Positions 307 through 19,696 of a stretch of 24,046 nt of DNA are shown here, one piece after another. This DNA comes from an uncultured Fidelibacterota bacterium. GTDB lineage: Bacteria > Fidelibacterota > Marinisomatia > Marinisomatales > UBA1611. Position numbers and translations under genes: made by a program. How positions within the stretch are numbered: the first letter of the stretch is position 1; every line of letters starts with the position of its first letter. The notes beneath the pieces are model-generated. The model saw only the letters and a list, made by a program, of their open reading frames with translations, was not told where the DNA came from and ran no database searches. The stretch spans positions 1 through 24,046 of the forward strand of contig CAJWHW010000028.1 in NCBI GenBank assembly GCA_913040915.1. Reading direction: 5' to 3'.

Positions 307-762
307 TTAAGAAATATCTGCTAAGACTTCTGCAGCATGTTCTTTTGGCTTAACCTTTTCATAAGCTTTTTTTACCATCCCATTTTCATCAATGAGGTAA
401 GAATACCGAAAAATGCCTTCATATTCTCTACCATACATTTTTTTTGTTCCCCAGGCTTTATAAGCTTTAATTGTGGACTTTTCAGGATCAGATAGAAGTT
501 GAAACGGAAACTCCTGTTTATTGCAAAAATTCTTTTGTGCTTTTACAGAATCAGCACTCATACCAATAATAGCTGTATTCTTCTTTTCAAAATTTTGAAA
601 CTCATCCCGGAGCTTCTGGCCTTCATTCGTTCATCCCGGTGTGCTGGCTTTGGGATAAAACCAGAGCAGTACTTTTTTCCCTTTAAAATCTGACAGGCTC
701 ACAGAATTTCCATCCTGATCTTCCAATGTGAAATCCGGTGCTTTCGTTCCTTCCTTTAACAT
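307..762 (-). CDS. bcp: BCP/PrxQ peroxiredoxin, probable selenoprotein (in-frame TGA at codon 44)
   Basis: From ATG at 762 (RBS AGGAG at 772-768, 5-nt spacer): [69 protein letters not shown]. This joins in frame to the listed 84-aa ORF ([15 protein letters not shown]...[13 protein letters not shown]), giving 151 aa. TGA (633-631) sits at the peroxidatic Cys of the BCP motif FYPKxxTPGCT. Confidence 0.93.
597..616 (-). promoter_or_regulatory. candidate bacterial SECIS hairpin
   Basis: Minus strand GAAGCTC-CGGGAT-GAGTTTC: 7-bp stem (one G-U pair) and a 6-nt loop with G at position 2. The loop begins 21 nt after the UGA. Confidence 0.7.
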
Positions 763-804
763 GTTTTCTCCTGATCCTTTTTTTATAGTGCAGAGAATAT
801 TTTT

Positions 805-1296
805 TTACTTCCCTGCGTTCTCAGTGTCATTTGAATTTAAAATTATTTCTGACCATCTCATGCGGTCATCATTGGCAAGGACCATACCATTTACTGCGGT
901 AATGCCTTTCTTTTGTCCGTTCCAAACTAATGTTTGAAGGGCAATTTCATAATCTGTCCATTGATATTCACAATGTTCATCAGAAAGAGTTACATCTTCC
1001 TGATCTACTTCTATGCCAAAAACGGGTACCAAATTAATACGGTCATCGTGTTTTTCATAAAATCGACTCACATGATCTGCAACAAAGATCCTTAATGGAT
1101 CGAAACCCGTTTCTTCTTTTAGCTCCCGAACAGCTGTCTGCCAGGCTTCTTCCCCGTCTTCGATCTTTCCTGCAACACCTTGCCAAAGATGTTCATATAG
1201 TTTTGTCCTGGCACGCTTCATTAACAGGAATTTTATTTTGCTTTCTTTTCTGTGGTATACGTAAGCATCTACCACCCTGACTTTTACATCCGGCAT
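805..1296 (-). CDS. Nudix hydrolase (NudB/Ap4A-hydrolase-like)
   Basis: Nudix box GKIEDGEEAWQTAVRELKEETG, plus WQGVAG before the box and LSDEHCEYQW after it. Start placed at Met17 of the listed ORF (1296), which overlaps the tgt stop as TAATG. Confidence 0.88.
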   Translation of the reverse strand: MPDVKVRVVDAYVYHRKESKIKFLLMKRARTKLYEHLWQGVAGKIEDGEEAWQTAVRELKEETGFDPLRIFVADHVSRFYEKHDDRINLVPVFGIEVDQEDVTLSDEHCEYQWTDYEIALQTLVWNGQKKGITAVNGMVLANDDRMRWSEIILNSNDTENAGK

Positions 1297-2429
1297 TACA
1301 TACCTTTTTGATCTTTCATAATATTCAGTGAATTTTTTGACCATTTATCAAAATCACCTAATTGAATTTTTTCTCTCATTTTTTTCATCAGATTTAGATA
1401 AAATGCCAAATTCAGTGTAGAAGCAATTCGTAGGCCAAGGACTTCATTAATATTGAATAAATGTCTTACATAGGATCTGGAAAAAACATTACCCCACTTA
1501 TGGGAACTTTCAGGATCTACAGGAGAATGATCGTCCTTGTATTTTTCATTTTTAATATTAATCACACCTTTAGTTGTGAAAATGTGTCCATTCCGACCAT
1601 TTCGTGTCGGCATTACACAATCGAACATATCTACACCGCGTTGTACGGCCTGAATAAGGTCTGAAGGCTTTCCAACGCCCATTAAATATCGAGGTTGATC
1701 TTTAGGCAAAATGGAATCACAAAATTCTAATGTGTCTAGCATGGCATTTTTTTCTTCTCCCACAGCCAAACCACCGATAGCCATTCCACAGGTAGAAAAT
1801 GGAATAAGCTCTTCAGCACTTATTTGTCTTAAATCATGACTCACTGCTCCCTGTATGATGGGGAAAAGCGTTTGCCTGTAATGATAGAGTCTAGAATTAT
1901 CTCCCAGCCAATCTGTACATCGTTTCATCCACCGCGTTGTTCTATTTACTGCATCTAGTACATTTTTTTCATCTGCATCACCAGGCGGACATTCATCAAA
2001 AGCCATGATAATATCTGCGCCCAGATTACGTTGAATTTCCATAGAAAATTCTGGGGTAAACATGTGGCGGCTGCCATCTATATGAGATTGGAATTCAACA
2101 CCATCATCGGTAATTTTATTTAACCGCGCCAGAGAAAAGACTTGAAAACCTCCGCTGTCTGTCAGAATTGGTTTATCCCAGGTATTGAATTTGTGTAACC
2201 CTCCCGCTTCATAAATGATTTTCATCCCGGGGCGCAAATACAAATGGTACGTATTTCCCAAAATAATTTGAGAGTCAACATCTATTAAATCATCTGGTGA
2301 CATTGTTTTTACCGCACCAACTGTACCTACAGGCATAAAAACCGGAGTCTCAATGGCACCATGATCTGTTTGCAAAAGACCAGTTCTGGCAGATGTATTT
2401 GGATCAGTTTGGTGTATATTAAAATTCAC
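1296..2429 (-). CDS. tgt: tRNA-guanine transglycosylase (queuine tRNA-ribosyltransferase)
   Basis: Motifs TPVFMPVGT, ILGNTYHLYLRPG, TDSGGFQVFSL, DIIMAFDECPP, GGLAVGE, PRYLMGVG and DMFDCVMPTRNGRNG. GTG start. Confidence 0.97.
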   Translation of the reverse strand: MNFNIHQTDPNTSARTGLLQTDHGAIETPVFMPVGTVGAVKTMSPDDLIDVDSQIILGNTYHLYLRPGMKIIYEAGGLHKFNTWDKPILTDSGGFQVFSLARLNKITDDGVEFQSHIDGSRHMFTPEFSMEIQRNLGADIIMAFDECPPGDADEKNVLDAVNRTTRWMKRCTDWLGDNSRLYHYRQTLFPIIQGAVSHDLRQISAEELIPFSTCGMAIGGLAVGEEKNAMLDTLEFCDSILPKDQPRYLMGVGKPSDLIQAVQRGVDMFDCVMPTRNGRNGHIFTTKGVINIKNEKYKDDHSPVDPESSHKWGNVFSRSYVRHLFNINEVLGLRIASTLNLAFYLNLMKKMREKIQLGDFDKWSKNSLNIMKDQKGM

Positions 2430-7176: not shown

Positions 7177-7917
7177 ATGAAGACACCCCTCTATTTTATT
7201 TCTGACATTCATTTAAAAATACGAACTTCCCCTGAAGAGATAACTCGTCGGGAAAATTTGTATCGACTGCTGGATCAAGTCCGGGAAACCGGTGGCACTT
7301 GTTTTTTTGTAGGTGATTTATTTGATTTTTATTTCGAATACCCTGACCTTGTGCCCAAATCATATACTGATTTTTACCAAAAAGCCATGGCTATGAAGGA
7401 AGATGGCATAGCATTACATTTTATTTTGGGAAACCATGATTACTGGGTGCAAGAATTCATCACTGAAGAGATTATGGATAAAGTTTATTTTGATGATGCA
7501 GTTATTACTGTAAATGATAAAAAGTTTTTTATTACTCATGGTGACGGTATTTTAAGCTGGGATCATGGATACCGGTTATTAAAAAAAATAATTCGGTCTA
7601 AATTTTTTATTTGGGCTTTCCGATGGCTACACCCCACTATTGCTTATAAATTCGCAAATCTAATATCCAGAAGTGGAAGACATGATATGCATTCGGAAAA
7701 ATTCAATGAAAATGTGCGTATTGAAATCCAAAAGATGGCTAAAATGAAGTTTGATAATGGCTTTGACTTCATGATCTGTGGGCATTATCATTTAGGTGAA
7801 ATGTTTAGCGTGAATGAAAGAAAACTGGCCGTTTTAGGAGATTGGTTTTATCGTCCGTCCTATGCGGTATATGATGGGAAGGATCTAAGTCTCCATCAAT
7901 GGGAGAACAATGATTAA
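7177..7917 (+). CDS. lpxH: UDP-2,3-diacylglucosamine diphosphatase-like metallophosphoesterase (LpxH family)
   Basis: Calcineurin-like motifs SDIH, GDLFD, GNHD, THGD, GHYH and C-terminal LGDW; 246 aa is typical of the LpxH family. Confidence 0.8.
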   Translation: MKTPLYFISDIHLKIRTSPEEITRRENLYRLLDQVRETGGTCFFVGDLFDFYFEYPDLVPKSYTDFYQKAMAMKEDGIALHFILGNHDYWVQEFITEEIMDKVYFDDAVITVNDKKFFITHGDGILSWDHGYRLLKKIIRSKFFIWAFRWLHPTIAYKFANLISRSGRHDMHSEKFNENVRIEIQKMAKMKFDNGFDFMICGHYHLGEMFSVNERKLAVLGDWFYRPSYAVYDGKDLSLHQWENND

Positions 7918-10242: not shown

Positions 10243-12738
10243 ATGAAGGAATCCAAAAATAAAATTGTCCTGGCTGTTTATTATTTTTGCCTGATGCAAA
10301 CTGTATTGGCTAAAGGAAACAACCAAAATATTGTTACAGGAACTGTACTCGATTCCACAACCAATAAACCTATTGAATATGCATCCATATCTCTTATAGA
10401 AACATCCACAGGCATTATTACCACCGGAGGAATTACGAATCCACAAGGTAGATTCTTTATTGATAAAATACCAGACGGACAATATTCAGCTATTGTAGAA
10501 TATATTGGCTATAAAAAATATAAAATAGATTCAATCATCTTTCAGAAAGAGACCCAAAAAGATCTAAACACTATTTATCTTTCAATTGCCAACATTCAGA
10601 TGGATGAAGTAGCTGCGTTTGGTGAACGGCCACAAATAATTCAAACCATGGAAAAAAAAGTTTTCAATATAGATGAAAGCCTCACACTCATTGGCGGGTC
10701 AGCAACTGATGCTTTGAAAAAAGTTCCATCTGTAGATGTAGACATTGACGGCAATATAAGTCTCCGTGGTGATCCAAATGTGACGTTACTCATTAATGGA
10801 AAACTCAGTGGTTTTACACAGGGAGATAGAAGAGTCACAGTAGATAATTTACCTGCAGCTATGATTGAAAGAATTGAAGTGATTACAAATCCTTCTGCCA
10901 AGTATGATCCGGATGGTATGGGCGGTATTGTAAATTTAATTTTAAAGCGAGGAAAATTTGAAGGTCTCAATGGCAATGCATTAATGTCCGCAGGACAATA
11001 TGATAAATACAATATTTCTGGAATGGTGAATTACCGTCGTTCAATTATCAATCTATATACCAATACAAGTTTAAGGCTTGATAATCAATTAGGGATGGGC
11101 AAAAGAACATTTACCTATAAATATCCTAACTATATAACATCAATCTATCAGGAAACGATTCGAGGGAAAAAACCAATTACAGGGGTAATAAAAATCGGTA
11201 GCGATTTTTTCTTATCGGATCAAAAAACACTTTCTTTCAGTTCAATCTACAGCCAGTATGAGCACCAAACGAATGATACAATCCTTACAACCGGTTATGT
11301 GGATTTTGAACAATATTCTGAAAAAAGGAGTAATGGGTTTAATCTAAGTTTTAACGGAGGATATACCCAGAATTTTGACCATCCTATCCGTAGAATGAGT
11401 ATGGAAGCTTCCTATTCACATGCTGGTGATGGATCAGACTCTTATTTTGGTAGAAATAATTCTGCTGCAATATCTGGTTTAGGCGGCAGTAGCTGGGAAG
11501 ATGAAAATATCGATAATACAGTGTTAACTTTTGATTACACTTTCCCAATCCAAGATAAGATAATTATTGAAAGTGGAATAAAAAATACTGTCAGTCGTTT
11601 TAGATCCGTATTGGATTATGTCCATAACCCCTACCGCTACCACTATAATGAAGATCTATTTTCAGGTTATATTACGATGGCTCATGAACACTCTAAACGT
11701 ATTGGGTTTAAAACGGGATTGCGTATGGAGCAGGTTTACACAGATGCAAAAGTAGAAGAGATTCCTCATGTCCATGACCACGATGATTCTACAAATGTAT
11801 TTACTGTTGTGATCGATTCAACAGTTGCAAAATCACCTTTTAAAAATCCATACTTTAAAATTTATCCTAGTGCTTATTTTCTTTATTCATTGGATGAGTC
11901 ATCCCAAATACAAATTGGCTACAGCAAGAGGGTTAACAGACCGCGACGCGAATCATTAAATCCATTTCCAAAAAACACATTTGACATCTACCATGTTCGA
12001 AATGGAAATCCGTATTTAATGCCTGAATTCATTGACATCATGGAATTGAACTATTCAAAAATTTCGGATCGTTTTTCTTTCAATACTGGTTTTTATTATA
12101 AGCATGTTGTGTCCCTCATCCAATGGTATGACCATGATTTTGTAACTGTCGGAGATCTGAAGTATGAACTAATCACTTCTGACAATGCAGGTGAGGCGGA
12201 TTCTTACGGAATGGAGTTTCTCATAAATTATCGACCGATAAATAATTTGAGTATGATGCTCAATTTAAATTCCTGGCACTCTAACGCATACGGAGCTGGC
12301 GAGCCTGACCTGAATGGAAAAACAATTGGTTATTTTTCTTACGGACTGGTATCCTATTCAATACCGGGTGTTGCAAAAATTGAATTATCCGGTAGGTACC
12401 GCGGCCCGATGACTATCACCACTGGGAAGATTAAAAGTTCATTTTATTGTGACCTAGCCATTCAAAAATCATTATTAAATAATCAGTTAGGTTTAACTCT
12501 AAATATTAAGGATCTCTTTGATAGTGGTATTTTTAATATTAAAACAAGTCAAATGATTTATAATCCAACATCAAGTGTAACTTATGAACAGATTATGTCT
12601 GCCGAACGCCGCAGAGATCGAAGAAGTATTTTAATTTCATTAAATTATAATTTTGGAAAGTTAGAAAAATCTCAAACAAAGATAAGTCCAAAAAAGATAA
12701 ACCATCATGATGGGAATGAAATTGAAATGATTTATTAA
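10243..12738 (+). CDS. TonB-dependent receptor-like outer-membrane beta-barrel (OMP_b-brl_3 type), paralog 1
   Basis: N-terminal CarboxypepD_reg-like domain (VTGTVLDSTTNKPIEYASISL); plug motifs VPSVDVDIDGNISLRG and IERIEVITNPSAKYDPDG.GGIVN; barrel motifs YSKRVNRP, GNPYLMPE and LNYNFGK. Confidence 0.9.
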   Translation: MKESKNKIVLAVYYFCLMQTVLAKGNNQNIVTGTVLDSTTNKPIEYASISLIETSTGIITTGGITNPQGRFFIDKIPDGQYSAIVEYIGYKKYKIDSIIFQKETQKDLNTIYLSIANIQMDEVAAFGERPQIIQTMEKKVFNIDESLTLIGGSATDALKKVPSVDVDIDGNISLRGDPNVTLLINGKLSGFTQGDRRVTVDNLPAAMIERIEVITNPSAKYDPDGMGGIVNLILKRGKFEGLNGNALMSAGQYDKYNISGMVNYRRSIINLYTNTSLRLDNQLGMGKRTFTYKYPNYITSIYQETIRGKKPITGVIKIGSDFFLSDQKTLSFSSIYSQYEHQTNDTILTTGYVDFEQYSEKRSNGFNLSFNGGYTQNFDHPIRRMSMEASYSHAGDGSDSYFGRNNSAAISGLGGSSWEDENIDNTVLTFDYTFPIQDKIIIESGIKNTVSRFRSVLDYVHNPYRYHYNEDLFSGYITMAHEHSKRIGFKTGLRMEQVYTDAKVEEIPHVHDHDDSTNVFTVVIDSTVAKSPFKNPYFKIYPSAYFLYSLDESSQIQIGYSKRVNRPRRESLNPFPKNTFDIYHVRNGNPYLMPEFIDIMELNYSKISDRFSFNTGFYYKHVVSLIQWYDHDFVTVGDLKYELITSDNAGEADSYGMEFLINYRPINNLSMMLNLNSWHSNAYGAGEPDLNGKTIGYFSYGLVSYSIPGVAKIELSGRYRGPMTITTGKIKSSFYCDLAIQKSLLNNQLGLTLNIKDLFDSGIFNIKTSQMIYNPTSSVTYEQIMSAERRRDRRSILISLNYNFGKLEKSQTKISPKKINHHDGNEIEMIY

Positions 12739-12865
12739 ATATTATTATTAATGATTTAACTTTTAAGCGTGAAATAAGTCTAATGCGTTTAGTTAGATAA
12801 AACATCCATCATATTTTTTTCTATTATTTCAAACATAATTAATTCACAATAAATAGGATTCTAAA

Positions 12866-15445
12866 TTGTTAAAACAAATTTTACCAGGTTTACTCTGTCT
12901 ATACCTGTTCCCGTCTGCATTTGCACATAAAGATCATTCTCATAAACCCAAAATGCCTGCCATAGGTATAGTTCAAGGTACCATTATTGATTCAGTCACT
13001 TCGGAGCCCATAGAATATGCTTCAGTTTCATTAGTCAATTTAGAGCATAATGAATTGGTAACTGGCGGGCTCACTAATAAAAATGGTCGGCTGAATATTA
13101 CTGAAATTCCACTAGGCAGATATGTCGCGGTCATTGAGTTCATTGGCTACGGTAAAAAAGAAGTTAGTCCTATAAACCTATTTCCGGGAGAAGGCGGCGG
13201 AATAAGGCATAATCTTGGGATAGTTAAGCTAAGTGTTTCTGCTGTGAATATGGAAGCAGTTGAAGTTGTTGGTGAAGAAAGCGTATTTGTTCAAACAATC
13301 GATAAAAAAATATTCAATGTCGGACGGGATTTATCATCTTCAGGAGGAACTGGTTCAGATGTCCTAAGAAAAATTCCTTCTGTGGATGTAGATATTGATG
13401 GGGTTGTTTCCATTGCGGGTGATGCAAATGTGACCATTCTTGTGGATGGGAAAAGAAGTGGCAGAACTGGTAGCGGCAGACGTGGTGAAGTTGAAAATAT
13501 CCCTGCATCAATGATTGAAAAAGTTGAAGTAATTACCAACCCTTCTGCGAAGTATGATCCGGACGGTGTGGGTGGGATCATCAATATTGTCTTGAAACGC
13601 GGTGCTTTGGATGGCTTCAACGGTAATGTCTCTGCTATGGGAGGCCAATACAACCAACAGAATATAAACAGTAATGTAAATTTTCGTACAGATAAATTGA
13701 ATCTGTTTACCAGTGCCAATTTCAGGACTGGAGACAGAGTCGGAGACGGTATAAGACAATTCCAATATGTTTATAGCGATGAAAATGGAATGATAACAGA
13801 AATAGATTCTTTATTTCAGGAAACAAGTCGCACACGAACGCCGGATAATCTGGGCTTTAGAATTGGCGGAGATTATTACCCATCCGAGTCCAGTACGCTG
13901 GGTTATACCTTTGACATCTCTGAACATAAGGAATTAGAAATAGAGCAATTTGATTACGAAGCTAATACGTTTAATCCGGAAATGGTTGGCCGCACATTTC
14001 GTACAGAAGAGAACGATAATGGGAACCATATGGATCATGTATTGTCTTATGAAAACAAATTTGATTCCCAGGAACAATTATTAAAAGCTTATGTAAGCTA
14101 TTCCCATGAGATAGACGATGTCCATGAGCAAGGCAATGGTGGTTCCAGTTCTTATTCAGTAGATAATAAAGCATCCACTGCAAAAGAAAAAAATGACAAT
14201 CTCACACTATCAATTGATTATGAAGATGAGTTTGGAGACAATTTAGGGATCGAAGTCGGAGCAAAAGCAACGTTAAGAGACTTTGGAACAGATCTTAATT
14301 ATTTGGATGAAGACTACATCAATAAATATGATGAAGATATTTATGCAGCCTACCTCGTAACCAGATATGACCTTACGGACCGTTTTGGCCTGAAAATAGG
14401 AGCAAGATATGAAAAGGTTAATACCTTTGCAGAACTAACCGGCTCCACTGAACATGACTCAAGCAACATCATAACAACAATTTTTGATAATGCTATTCAA
14501 GAATCACCGTTCGATAATCCATATAATAAAGTTTACCCAAGCGCATTCCTTCTATACAAATTGAATGAAAAACAAAATTTACAATTCGGATATTCGAAGA
14601 AGGTTAATCGACCAAATAGGCGTACGCTAAGTCCATTCCCCAGAAGTACTCAGGATATAACCAGACTTAGAAATGGAAACCCATTCCTTAAGCCGGAATA
14701 TAGTGACGTAATGGAACTGACCTTTTCTAGTAACTCTAGAAAAATAAATTTGAATCTAACTGGTTCCTATAAGAATACAACCGATGTGATTATGTGGTGG
14801 GACCGAGACTATATAGAATTTATTGATACTGCTAGAGTAGGTGGGCCAGATACAACTACATATGAAATCCTCACCGCTGGCAATGCTGAAAATTCTAAAA
14901 GTATGAATATAAATGGAAATATCATGTACAGGCCTATGCCGTTGGTCAGTCTTATGGTCTGGGGTTATGGCTGGGATTCTGAAACAAAGGATTCTGATAA
15001 GAATGAATCAGACTTCAATGGCACTTCAAGAGGTATGGGCCTAGGAGGGAGATTAACTTTGAATATTCCAACAGTCGCCCGTATTGAACTTTCAGGAAAT
15101 GGCCGTGGTAATATGAAAATAACAACCGGGACGATACCGGCAAACTTTCGCTGCAATCTAGCCATCCAAAAATCATTTCTACAAAATCGATTAACTATCA
15201 CTGCTAAGTTCAATGATATTTTTGATTCTGGTAAATTTATTATCGATACCGAGAATGAAGTCACAAACAGCAGAACTAAGGAAACCTATATTCAGAGAAT
15301 GTATGCAGAACGCCAGAGGCAGAAACGAAATTACTCTCTTGTATTAAATTATAATTTTGGGAAACAGCAAAGAAAAAAATGGAACAGGAGTAATTTTAGT
15401 GGTCGCTCAGGTGGTATGGGCGGCGGTATGGATATGGATTATTAA
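12866..15445 (+). CDS. TonB-dependent receptor-like outer-membrane beta-barrel (OMP_b-brl_3 type), paralog 2
   Basis: TTG start after AGGA; signal peptide ending AFA; same plug and barrel motifs as paralog 1 (IEKVEVITNPSAKYDPDG, YSKKVNRP, GNPFLKPE, LNYNFGK). Confidence 0.9.
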   Translation: MLKQILPGLLCLYLFPSAFAHKDHSHKPKMPAIGIVQGTIIDSVTSEPIEYASVSLVNLEHNELVTGGLTNKNGRLNITEIPLGRYVAVIEFIGYGKKEVSPINLFPGEGGGIRHNLGIVKLSVSAVNMEAVEVVGEESVFVQTIDKKIFNVGRDLSSSGGTGSDVLRKIPSVDVDIDGVVSIAGDANVTILVDGKRSGRTGSGRRGEVENIPASMIEKVEVITNPSAKYDPDGVGGIINIVLKRGALDGFNGNVSAMGGQYNQQNINSNVNFRTDKLNLFTSANFRTGDRVGDGIRQFQYVYSDENGMITEIDSLFQETSRTRTPDNLGFRIGGDYYPSESSTLGYTFDISEHKELEIEQFDYEANTFNPEMVGRTFRTEENDNGNHMDHVLSYENKFDSQEQLLKAYVSYSHEIDDVHEQGNGGSSSYSVDNKASTAKEKNDNLTLSIDYEDEFGDNLGIEVGAKATLRDFGTDLNYLDEDYINKYDEDIYAAYLVTRYDLTDRFGLKIGARYEKVNTFAELTGSTEHDSSNIITTIFDNAIQESPFDNPYNKVYPSAFLLYKLNEKQNLQFGYSKKVNRPNRRTLSPFPRSTQDITRLRNGNPFLKPEYSDVMELTFSSNSRKINLNLTGSYKNTTDVIMWWDRDYIEFIDTARVGGPDTTTYEILTAGNAENSKSMNINGNIMYRPMPLVSLMVWGYGWDSETKDSDKNESDFNGTSRGMGLGGRLTLNIPTVARIELSGNGRGNMKITTGTIPANFRCNLAIQKSFLQNRLTITAKFNDIFDSGKFIIDTENEVTNSRTKETYIQRMYAERQRQKRNYSLVLNYNFGKQQRKKWNRSNFSGRSGGMGGGMDMDY

Positions 15446-15446
15446 T

Positions 15447-17147
15447 CTATGGTAGTCTGATACGCTCTACCATATCCCGGATATCATTTGGAATTTGCGG
15501 ACTTCGTTTTGAAACCAAGTGAGCAACAATAAAATTTACTACTGCACCCACAGCACCAAATGCATTGGGTTCAATACCGAAAAACCAGTTCGCCTCCATT
15601 CCTCCTAAAAACGATGTTGACTGAATAAACATTATTCCTTTATGCTGGAACACATATAATAATGTGACTCCAATCCCTGCTAACATGCCCGCTATTGCAC
15701 CTTCTTTATTCATTGTAATAGAAAAAATGCCCATCATCAACGCTGGGAATATGGATGAGGCTGCCAGTCCAAAAGCTAAAGCAACAGTTCCGGCTGCAAA
15801 ATCAGGCGGATTAAACCCAAAATAGCCTGCAACTGCGATTGATGCTGCCATTGCAATTCTACTCGCTCTTAGTTCATCCTTCTCTGATATATCTGGCCTA
15901 AATACACCTTTTAATAGATCATGAGATATAGAAGAAGAAATAGCCAGCAATAATCCTGCTGCAGTTGATAGGGCTGCCGCAAGTCCTCCTGCAGCAACCA
16001 AAGCAATCACCCAATTTGGCAAACCAGCAATCTCAGGATTTGCTAAAACCATAATGTCTCGGTCTACTTTTACCATTTCATTTGAATCTGTGCCGGTATA
16101 CTCAATTAGACCATCATTATTTTTATCTTCAAACTTCAATAATCCAGTTTTTTCCCAGTTTCTAAACCAGGGAGGACGGTCACTATAAGCCAGATTATTT
16201 TCTTTCGTGGGTTGATCAATCGTGGTCATCAAGTTTAGCCGAGCCATGGCTGCCACAGCAGGTGCTGTTGTATATAGGATTGCAATAAACACCAGAGCCC
16301 ATCCAGCGGATGACCTAGCCGCTTTAACCGATGGAACTGTGAAAAATCTCATAATCACATGAGGCAGTCCCGCAGTACCAATCATTAAAGATAGAGTATA
16401 AAAAAACATATTAAATAAACTTAGGCGTTTACTGGTAGTATATTCCTTGAATCCAAGCTCGGTGACAATCTGGTCCAGTTTATCCAATAAATATGATCCG
16501 TCTTCTAAGGTGCTTCCTAACCCAAGCTGAGGAATTAGATTACCTGTCAACATGAACGAAATAAAGATAGCTGGTATCGTATAGGCAATGATCATAATGA
16601 CATATTGAGCAATCTGCGTGTATGTAATACCCTTCATCCCTCCCATAACAGCATAAATAAAAACAATCACCATTCCCACTGTTAAACCTTGATCATAATC
16701 CACTTCTAAAAATCTAGAGAATGCAACACCTATACCTTTCATTTGTCCAATCACATAGGTTACAGAAGCAATGATAAGACAGACAACTGCCACAACTCGT
16801 GCAGTCTTGGAATAATAACGATCACTTATAAATTCAGGGACGGTAAAAGTGCCGTGTTTCCGAAGATAGGGAGCTATCAAGAGTGCCAGTAGTACGTAAC
16901 CACCGGTCCAGCCCATTAAAAATACTGAACCTCCATATCCAAAAAAGGAAATTAAACCCGCCATAGAAATAAAAGATGCTGCTGACATCCAATCAGCTGC
17001 TGTAGCCATACCGTTTGCAACCGGATGGATATCACCTCCTGCTACATAGAATTCATTTGTGCTGCGGGCTCTCGCCCAGAATGCAATACCTATGTAGATT
17101 GCAAATGTAATTCCAACAATGATAAAAGTAAGGATTTTCAGGGACAT
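15447..17147 (-). CDS. actP: sodium:solute symporter, ActP-like cation/acetate permease
   Basis: Motifs NGMATAADWMSAASFIS, GWTGGYVLLALLIAPYLRK, GGMKGITYTQ, GTAGLPHVIMRFFTV and AAALSTAAGLLL; polytopic; lies downstream of a DUF4212 gene. Substrate inferred from the family only. Confidence 0.85.
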   Translation of the reverse strand: MSLKILTFIIVGITFAIYIGIAFWARARSTNEFYVAGGDIHPVANGMATAADWMSAASFISMAGLISFFGYGGSVFLMGWTGGYVLLALLIAPYLRKHGTFTVPEFISDRYYSKTARVVAVVCLIIASVTYVIGQMKGIGVAFSRFLEVDYDQGLTVGMVIVFIYAVMGGMKGITYTQIAQYVIMIIAYTIPAIFISFMLTGNLIPQLGLGSTLEDGSYLLDKLDQIVTELGFKEYTTSKRLSLFNMFFYTLSLMIGTAGLPHVIMRFFTVPSVKAARSSAGWALVFIAILYTTAPAVAAMARLNLMTTIDQPTKENNLAYSDRPPWFRNWEKTGLLKFEDKNNDGLIEYTGTDSNEMVKVDRDIMVLANPEIAGLPNWVIALVAAGGLAAALSTAAGLLLAISSSISHDLLKGVFRPDISEKDELRASRIAMAASIAVAGYFGFNPPDFAAGTVALAFGLAASSIFPALMMGIFSITMNKEGAIAGMLAGIGVTLLYVFQHKGIMFIQSTSFLGGMEANWFFGIEPNAFGAVGAVVNFIVAHLVSKRSPQIPNDIRDMVERIRLP

Positions 17148-17165: not shown

Positions 17166-17417
17166 TTAAGTTTCAGGCGGTTTATATTTTTTATCAATCT
17201 CTCCTATCTTAAATGCATAATAAAAAATAAGAAGGACAAAAACATAGATAGAACCTTGCTGCGCAAACCAAAAGCCCAGTTTATATCCTGCTATTCTGAT
17301 TGAATTCAACTGATCAACCATTACAATACTGAATATATAGGAAATGATAAACCAGATAGACAGGCACCGTATAATTAGGGTTAAATTTTCTTTCCAGTAC
17401 CTTTGGTCTTTAGACAT
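17166..17417 (-). CDS. DUF4212 small membrane partner of the SSS transporter
   Basis: YWKENL...LSIWF...GYKLGFWFAQQGSIYVFVLLIFYYA is the DUF4212 signature, in its usual position directly upstream of the ActP-like gene. Confidence 0.9.
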   Translation of the reverse strand: MSKDQRYWKENLTLIIRCLSIWFIISYIFSIVMVDQLNSIRIAGYKLGFWFAQQGSIYVFVLLIFYYAFKIGEIDKKYKPPET

Positions 17418-18469: not shown

Positions 18470-19696
18470 ATGCTCAAACTTTTAAAAAACAAAATATTTA
18501 TACTTTTTTTCATGGGAAACATCATTTCCCTTATTGGCTTTGGGTTTAATATGATTGCAGTAAGTTGGATGGTACTAGAAGAAACTGGTTCCGAGTTTAC
18601 TCTTGGAAAAATAATGGCCACTGCAACCATTCCAGGTCTGTTCCTTGCCATTTTTGCTGGCGTAATTATCGATAAAGTAAATCGTAAATGGCTTATGGTT
18701 AATCTGGATATTTTCAGAATGTTAATTGTATCTGGTTTTCTGGTGATGTTAAATTATTACGAATTCCAACTTTGGTTCATTTATCCAGTTGCTATTTTAA
18801 TGGGGCTTGGGAATTCCCTTTTTTGGCCCACCGCACAAGCATTTGTACAGGAACTTGTTTCTGAAAAAGATTATTTCAATGCAAATAAACTGCTCTCAGC
18901 AAGTTACCAGGTTGGTTCAATCATTGGTGCTGGCCTAGGTGGGTTTGTAGTTCATTTTTATAACCCTATAACTGCACTTTGGATCAATGTATTTTGTTAC
19001 ATTGTTTCTGGTATCCTTATTACCCTAGCACCGTTTAAGCAAACAAGACCAAAACCAGAAAAAGAAAACTTGATTACTTCACTATCAAAGGGATTTTCAT
19101 TCCTTAAAAATAAATTTGATATTTTAACTCTGGGTCTGACAACAATACTTTCCGATGTGGCCATATGGGGATCTCTCTCTGTTCTTACTATTACAATTTC
19201 AAAAGAAATATTTAATAGAGGTACCTGGGGTTACGGCATGATGGAAGGTCTGTACGGAGTTGGCGCATTACTTTCAACAATAATTGTAGGTTTTGCTGTT
19301 AAAAACATAGGCCGTAGCTACTTTCTACTTATGTGTTACTCTGTAGCAGGCTTCATGTGTTTTATTGTCCCTCATATGCTCACAATATACCATGCGACGA
19401 TCACATTTTTCTTTATGGGCTTATATAATAATTCCGCTAGGATCATTGTGCGAACCATCTTTATGGAAAATATACCGAACCAGATTATGGGCAGAGTGCA
19501 AACAATTTTCGGTGTTTACACAAGATTAATGGTTGTATTAAGTGCTCTATTGGCAGGATGGATCATAGAGAATCACAGCATCATACATGCTGTTAATTTT
19601 ACTGCATTACATTATCTGTTTGCTTTGGTAGGAATCATTGTTGTGATGTACACCTGGGAAAAATCCTACAATATACTTTCAGATAAATTAACCTGA
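18470..19696 (+). CDS. MFS transporter (DHA3/MFS_3-like)
   Basis: About 12 hydrophobic segments; motif A GVIIDKVNRKWLMV; C-terminal-half IPNQIMGRVQ. Confidence 0.9.
   Translation: MLKLLKNKIFILFFMGNIISLIGFGFNMIAVSWMVLEETGSEFTLGKIMATATIPGLFLAIFAGVIIDKVNRKWLMVNLDIFRMLIVSGFLVMLNYYEFQLWFIYPVAILMGLGNSLFWPTAQAFVQELVSEKDYFNANKLLSASYQVGSIIGAGLGGFVVHFYNPITALWINVFCYIVSGILITLAPFKQTRPKPEKENLITSLSKGFSFLKNKFDILTLGLTTILSDVAIWGSLSVLTITISKEIFNRGTWGYGMMEGLYGVGALLSTIIVGFAVKNIGRSYFLLMCYSVAGFMCFIVPHMLTIYHATITFFFMGLYNNSARIIVRTIFMENIPNQIMGRVQTIFGVYTRLMVVLSALLAGWIIENHSIIHAVNFTALHYLFALVGIIVVMYTWEKSYNILSDKLT

Follow-up and report, generated by a model that had tools for sequence, protein, structure and literature searches.

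The minus-strand reading frame at positions 307 to 762 of the window (the whole stretch of DNA analysed, 24,046 nt) is a real selenoprotein gene, with a probability that we put at about 0.96. It encodes a BCP/PrxQ peroxiredoxin with selenocysteine (Sec, U) at position 44; the catalytic residue of the enzyme is almost certainly selenocysteine, and we infer its incorporation at codon 44. The preliminary description had proposed such a hidden gene, with UGA in place of the peroxidatic Cys codon and no other lesion. Translation from 762 to 307 gives 151 codons with a single internal stop, the TGA at 633-631 (codon 44), and 39 of the 48 orthologues examined carry TGA at the same codon, in agreement with that proposal. 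The gene and its surroundings comprise:

307 to 762, minus strand: bcp/prxQ gene, 151 aa, with a lone in-frame UGA (U44) and the terminal stop TAA at 309-307.

768 to 772, minus strand: Shine-Dalgarno-like AGGAG, 5 nt ahead of the ATG at 762, seen in the sequence.

805 to 2429, minus strand: upstream same-strand neighbours, a NUDIX-like ORF (805-1344) and a tgt-like ORF (1296-2429), named by inspection of their translations.

The AGGAG motif (772-768) is the strong ribosome binding site noted earlier, and a GGAG/AGGA-like motif is also found upstream of most of the orthologues listed. The NUDIX-like and tgt-like ORFs are both present at 26 of 29 orthologue loci; a functional tie between them and bcp is not evident. 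A promoter scan was uninformative (5 sites, 8.5 expected), and no terminator-like site was found 3′ of bcp on the minus strand.

In existing annotations the gene is broken up. The ORF lister reports for bcp the 84-aa piece at 307-561 alone, as had been stated, and the prediction that standard pipelines would split the gene holds for public protein collections, where it is stored as separate proteins of 43 and 84 aa. Some cluster members of these fragment proteins carry the label 'peroxiredoxin Q/BCP'; the look-up was of a kind that could not find a U-bearing record. Residues 45 to 67 fall in neither called fragment, yet they are conserved (E47, G48, R52, D53, G67), and neither fragment would include the peroxidatic residue. 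Two-fragment records without the catalytic residue cause the peroxide defence and the selenium use of the bacterium to be under-counted. The read-through reading corrects the annotation of an antioxidant gene.

A match to the protein occurs in 60 of the 61 genomes searched, which come from its genus, family and order. From these matches we took the 48 loci that scored highest, no more than one from any genome and none below 56% identity; lower-scoring paralogues and genomes lacking an orthologue of full length fall outside this set. Codon 44 is TGA in 39, TGC in 5 and TGT in 4 of these orthologues, never TAA or TAG, and no other internal stop occurs in any of the 48. Cys/TGA alternation with conservation on both sides had been named as a check. 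Both were found: the mean identity to the window protein is 76% upstream and 71% downstream of the TGA (38 TGA orthologues). Because the orthologues are related to one another, these counts cannot be treated as independent; the TGA forms are spread across several families of one order.

If the UGA were a genuine stop, the locus would be a pseudogene or would specify separate products of 43 and 84 aa. This is extremely improbable. Both fragments are recorded as proteins in databases, TGA ordinarily serves as a stop here (at 27% of 957 long ORFs) and selC is missing from the assembly, but a genuine stop does not fit 39 orthologues that share TGA at the catalytic codon without any other lesion, the restriction of codon 44 to TGA, TGC or TGT, or the position of the conserved residues 45 to 67 and of the peroxidatic residue outside both fragments.

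A sequencing or assembly error, with TGC or TGT as the true codon, was weighed as well, because the window belongs to a metagenome-assembled genome and a contig across the codon was obtained from just one of four runs. That contig, from run X2, spans 263-707 with 0 differing letters, including the TGA at 633-631; in runs X3, X4 and X8 no contig of the organism bridging codon 44 was found. A metagenome scan in which the third base of the codon was left open matched 5 loci, all of them TGA; one of the 5 contigs is 95% and one 100% identical to the gene, the latter perhaps not independent. As TGA is also found in 38 other genomes, we consider such an error practically negligible.

TGA terminates 27% of the 957 long ORFs of the genome, and in 7 of the 39 Sec orthologues the frame that has TGA at codon 44 also ends in TGA. 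TGA is thus not generally reassigned, as the preliminary description had also concluded, from two TGA stops elsewhere in the window. One of these, at 19694-19696, is indeed TGA and overlaps the next ATG, but the stop at 7915-7917, which overlaps the ATG of the next gene at 7910, is TAA. Among 13 gene stops in the window, a tally that leaves out the genes at 15447-17147 and 17166-17417, 12 are TAA and 1 is TGA.

The source genome (G000; 1.86 Mb, assembly 85% complete) probably belongs to a marine SAR406 bacterium, as the closest named records are of Ca. Neomarinimicrobiota/Marinimicrobia; the data sets listed as containing the DNA are marine metagenomes, with no RNA set among them. G000 was then searched for the sel genes. 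selA (492 bits), selB (324 bits) and selD (386 bits) all score above the curated cut-offs. selA and selB are adjacent on contig C16, and selD lies on C6; selA and selB have no internal stops, and selD has one in-frame TGA near its N-terminus. The remaining gene of the suggested search, selC, was not found: ARAGORN reported no tRNA-Sec among the 30 tRNA genes of G000, the best match to Rfam RF01852 (46.3 bits, cut-off 47) is a site that ARAGORN names tRNA-Ser, and an anticodon-stem pattern search of G000 returned 3 matches, none of them tRNA-like. Two other genomes, G001 of the same genus and G032, do carry a canonical tRNA-Sec (anticodon UCA). The DNA that precedes it there aligns to contig C9 of G000 down to position 7-8 from the contig end, and C9 ends about 800 nt short of the place of tRNA-Sec in the relatives. 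Because the syntenic DNA runs off the end of C9, selC of G000 most likely lies in an assembly gap. Among the 61 genomes, 55 gave a match to selA, 56 to selD and 45 to tRNA-Sec, although two of the 45 tRNA-Sec matches score just 48-49 bits and may be tRNA-Ser. One relative, G047 (1.1 Mb, 99% complete), has no match to selA, selD or tRNA-Sec and no selB above the cut-off. Its BCP has TGC at codon 44, and the hairpin described below is absent; the whole Sec trait was likely lost in this streamlined lineage.

The same evidence bears on the possibility that the UGA is decoded as Cys or Trp rather than Sec, through general reassignment or through leaky or hairpin-guided suppression. Cys at position 44 would yield an ordinary active BCP, and selC was not found in the assembly. 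Against this stand the near lack of internal stops in the sel genes (none in selA and selB, the one TGA in selD), the use of TGA as terminator in 7 of 39 Sec orthologues, the tRNA-Sec of G001 and G032 with synteny reaching the end of C9, and the TGC codon of the near-complete relative that lacks the Sec machinery. Decoding as Cys or Trp is very improbable.

Two further observations concern Sec genes elsewhere. Genome G060 has two selD matches, one with TGA and one stop-free in a 733-aa frame, which is possibly of the Ndh-SelD fusion type mentioned in the text of PMC2398784. When the whole of G000 was scanned for TGA read-through with a dicodon score, 30 candidates emerged, mostly adjacent genes or antisense frames; the scan was too noisy for counting the selenoproteome, but it recovered bcp, selD and a BCP paralogue on contig C35. 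It also listed a CxU-type candidate at C18:14715 (plus strand) and a UGTCR-type candidate at C8:67280 (minus strand), neither of which has the core of the BCP hairpin.

Incorporation of Sec at a UGA codon in bacteria involves a SECIS hairpin downstream of the codon. The candidate in the window is:

597 to 616, minus strand: bacterial SECIS candidate with a 7-bp stem and a 6-nt loop (609-604), 21 nt past the UGA, -7.8 kcal/mol.

The bSECIS model, as given in the part of a 2026 review that was available (PMC13188914), specifies a loop of 3-9 nt, a stem of 4-16 bp, a distance of 16-37 nt from the UGA and an MFE of at most -7.5, and for the loop a G at position 1-2, often followed by G or U. The hairpin agrees with the four constraints of the model. 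Position 2 of its loop is G, and the next base is G (33) or U (6).

Codons 49-56 contain the hairpin, which forces the use of rare codons there. In the 39 TGA orthologues codon 51 is CTC in 28 of 28 Leu cases and TTC in 11 of 11 Phe cases; genome-wide, CTC makes up 5.7% of Leu codons. Codon 54 (Glu) is GAG with every CTC (28) and GAA with every TTC (11), without exception, which makes a compensatory C-G/U-A swap, 28 versus 11. Arg52 is encoded by CGG (33) or CGT (6) alone in all 39, which fits the loop rule G[G|U]; Arg119, by contrast, is spelled with many codons. The stem positions pair in 90.5% of cells versus 6.6-52.7% for slid partners, and 22 cells are changed on both sides of the stem, a number reached by 0 of 500 shuffles. 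At the outermost position pairing is weak, being lost in 23 of 39. The hairpin check suggested for the relatives thus gave a clear answer: a conserved and covarying hairpin is kept in all 39 TGA orthologues.

In a second set of 80 loci, which partly overlaps the first, the hairpin was found in 13 of 13 TGA loci and in 0 of 67 Cys loci. Of these Cys loci 65 lie outside the Marinimicrobia-like group (hairpin in 0 of 65), and the outgroup Cys BCPs have another amino acid at codon 54, which makes them an imperfect control. Four Cys orthologues of the first set retain the hairpin, so the hairpin is an imperfect predictor of TGA. Just two copies of the 12-nt hairpin core exist in the genome, here and in the C35 paralogue, and both follow the TGA of their BCP gene in register. 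Compared with shuffles, the folding stability of the hairpin is unexceptional, with z of -0.32 over 54 nt and -1.43 over 31 nt. A compact SECIS with covariation support is a useful yield of the comparison. A larger lower stem predicted for 560-640 was no better than shuffles (z -0.70) and is not claimed.

With C in place of U, the read-through protein scores 168.7 bits (cut-off 140, residues 2-148) against NCBIfam NF006960 (thioredoxin-dependent thiol peroxidase, PRK09437) and 130.6 bits against Pfam AhpC-TSA; the cut-off of the Deinococcus-specific NF053650 was not reached (128.9 versus 260). Membership in the AhpC-like PrxU family was rejected: the protein scores 51.2 bits against NF040737, a model of 233 positions with a cut-off of 270. 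The active-site residues are:

631 to 633, minus strand: the UGA at codon 44, read as Sec and as the peroxidatic residue of PxxxTxxU from the alternation in 48 orthologues; its counterpart in Xanthomonas BCP/PrxQ is the Cys of TPGCT.

652 to 654, minus strand: Pro37, with which PxxxTxxU begins, the same in all 34 aligned sequences.

640 to 642, minus strand: Thr41, the threonine of PxxxTxxU, likewise unvaried in all 34.

523 to 525, minus strand: Cys80, the sole Cys and candidate resolving Cys; gap-free alignment to Cys84 (HDNFC) of Xanthomonas campestris PrxQ.

406 to 408, minus strand: Arg119, candidate catalytic arginine, unchanged in all 34 sequences; solved BCPs have the Arg of GIERST at this place in the alignment.

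We take the position of Arg119 to be that of the catalytic arginine of peroxiredoxins. The motif reads P37-K-A-S-T41-P-G-U44, in which P37, T41 and G43 are invariant and position 44 is C or U in 34 of 34 sequences; Pxxx(T/S)xx(C/U) is given as the BCP/PrxQ active-site motif in the accessible text of PMC8945050 and PMC13188914. A structure model built from the single sequence was poor (pLDDT 52) and was replaced by a model from the 34-sequence alignment (pLDDT 95.8), which shows a thioredoxin-like Prx fold. The top 10 Foldseek matches of the latter are BCP/PrxQ-type entries (TM 0.88-0.95), ranks 2-10 being Burkholderia and Xanthomonas BCP/PrxQ entries (TM 0.88-0.92). Cys80 lies in the helix that follows the active-site helix (model helix 73-83).

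The solved structures of X. campestris BCP/PrxQ (PDB 3GKK, 3GKM, 5IIZ, 5IOX, 5IPH) and Xylella fastidiosa PrxQ (3IXR) match the model with TM ~0.9. The X. campestris protein aligns without gaps over residues 11-149 (E 1e-27, ~37% identity), with U44 on Cys48 and Cys80 on Cys84; in the window protein Sec replaces the peroxidatic Cys. Like the Xanthomonas and Xylella enzymes it has no Cys at +5 and has a second Cys 36 residues downstream. The Xanthomonas type presumably corresponds to the 'alpha3 / PrxQ-beta subtype'. C48S, C84S and disulfide structures of the X. campestris enzyme are tabulated in the available text of PMC8113037; for the resolving role of Cys84 we rely on PDB titles and this review table. 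The window protein passes the NF006960 cut-off, but in contrast to E. coli Bcp and Corynebacterium PrxQ (CxxxxC type) it lacks the Cys at +5. PrxU of Eubacterium acidaminophilum (Sohling et al. 2001), represented by NF040737, is likewise a Sec-containing bacterial peroxiredoxin but belongs to a different Prx subfamily (51.2 versus 270 bits).

By the known pathway of bacterial Sec decoding, SelD would make selenophosphate, SelA would turn Ser-tRNA(Sec) into Sec-tRNA(Sec), and SelB would bind the hairpin 21 nt beyond the UGA and deliver Sec, the product being one 151-aa, presumably cytoplasmic BCP/PrxQ peroxiredoxin. The Sec44 selenolate, held by Pro37, Thr41 and Arg119, would reduce H2O2 or organic hydroperoxides and be converted to the selenenic acid. 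The match of Cys80 to Cys84 of Xanthomonas PrxQ suggests a Sec44-Cys80 selenenylsulfide cycle: Cys80 would condense with the selenenic acid, giving a selenenylsulfide within the molecule in the way that Cys84 reacts with Cys48 in the Xanthomonas enzyme, and this bond would then be reduced by thioredoxin and thioredoxin reductase. We infer by analogy what Cys80 does, which peroxides are reduced and which reductant is used. trxA and trxB score above cut-off and are adjacent on contig C31 of G000, and a thioredoxin-dependent monomeric peroxidase is the expected mode according to the accessible text of PMC5811025.

Within the Sec reading, Cys80 may have no resolving function, and the protein may be a 1-Sec peroxiredoxin that takes its electrons straight from thioredoxin or a small thiol. 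Cys80 is present in 29 of the 39 Sec orthologues, absent in 9 and unreadable in 1, and therefore cannot be universally required. Five Sec orthologues (G024, G035, G016, G028, G002) have no Cys anywhere and four have a Cys at 91 instead of 80; in the text seen of PMC8945050, most prokaryotic BCPs are said to lack a resolving Cys, and 1-Cys BCP to be reduced by Trx or GSH/Grx. What makes this alternative unlikely, though a serious contender, is the retention of Cys80 in 29 of 39 Sec orthologues, its being the only Cys of the window protein, and its +36 spacing, which equals that of Cys84 in the structurally characterised X. campestris PrxQ (C48S, C84S and intramolecular-disulfide forms). We prefer the Sec44-Cys80 cycle for the window protein.

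The Cys-free Sec orthologue loci, 1-Sec peroxiredoxins, are L022, L060, L061, L062 and L065; L068, L072, L073 and L075 lack Cys80 and have their one Cys at 91. The Sec-BCP paralogue of G000 (C35:9850-10317, minus strand) is of UxxxxC type, with a Cys five residues past the TGA, and carries the hairpin in its U-A form at an unchanged register. It is the counterpart of the CxxxxC-type E. coli Bcp and Corynebacterium PrxQ, so that the two Sec-BCPs of G000 differ in their candidate resolving cysteine.

Sec-containing peroxiredoxins had been said to be known from marine metagenomes, and the literature agrees. Zhang et al. (2005, PMC1088965) list Prx (COG1225, motif TXXU, 43 Sargasso genes) under 'known selenoproteins', Zhang and Gladyshev (2008, PMC2398784) give 253 GOS Prx sequences, and the 2026 review lists the Prx family and names PxxxTxxU as its conserved motif (PMC13188914), each in the portion of the text accessible. 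A text search of the '#Peroxiredoxin' section of GOS Dataset S1 (PMC2398784) found 53 occurrences of ASTPGU and full-length members of the same orthologous group, with EGQxLRDEF and KNFC segments. An exact-motif search of the dataset for the TNEGQ start returned 3 relatives, none identical to the window protein. bcp is therefore an additional member of a marine Sec-Prx family known since 2005, not a new one. As in that family (COG1225/pfam00578), there is one Sec in TxxU and the source is marine. The 2005 and 2008 sequences, as far as described in those texts, are unassigned reads, whereas here the gene lies in a genome with selA, selB and selD, has a covariation-supported SECIS and adjoins NUDIX-like and tgt-like genes. 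A literature search that placed most subscription journals outside its scope found no biochemical study of a Sec-containing BCP/PrxQ, and a search for Marinimicrobia and selenoproteins found, in the accessible texts, no paper on the selenoproteome of the lineage.

The Cys orthologues give a view of Sec-to-Cys switching in the lineage. Four of them, in the pairs G004/G030 and G005/G019 (TGT/TGC), have the full hairpin and are nested inside the Sec clade:

L024 (G004), L030 (G030), L025 (G019) and L026 (G005): Cys-codon orthologues with intact hairpin.

A protein tree (FastTree, site 44 masked) requires 5 changes between U and C; the tree is midpoint-rooted and several of its nodes are weak. A single clade of all 9 Cys forms was rejected (AU p 3e-5), and a single clade of the four in-family Cys forms was borderline (AU p 0.04, SH p 0.13), in tests with 5,000 replicates, fewer than the program advises. 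G004 has selA, selB, selC and selD; G005 and G019 have selA, selB and a TGA-bearing selD; in G030 (77% complete) selC and selD are present and selA and selB were unmatched. By eye, the U-bearing GOS read JCVI_READ_902944 in Dataset S1 matches the Cys protein of G005 at 148 of 151 residues, and the U-bearing JCVI_READ_1092963516479 matches that of G019 at 145 of 151, the 3 and 6 differences including the U/C site. The metagenome pattern scan (5 loci, all TGA) contained none close to G005 and has no bearing on Sec/Cys polymorphism there.

The Cys orthologues of G004, G030, G019 and G005 are probable recent Sec-to-Cys reversions. On balance we favour the broader view that the peroxidatic residue of BCP flipped from Sec to Cys more than once, very recently, in Sec-decoding bacteria with the SECIS intact. 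Table 1 of a 2006 survey (PMC1794560) records no Sec-to-Cys event for Prx, and the available text of that survey describes remnant SECIS elements behind Cys codons for other families; later surveys may already report Prx Sec-to-Cys reversion. If the reversions are real, the lineage offers near-isogenic natural pairs of Sec and Cys alleles for comparing both chemistries, and Sec forms with Cys at +5, +36, +47 or none with which the benefit of selenium in selenium-poor seawater could be tested.

Elsewhere in the window, two adjacent long ORFs of 831 and 859 aa (10243-15445, plus strand) are similar to each other. By inspection of their translations they look like TonB-dependent outer-membrane receptors.
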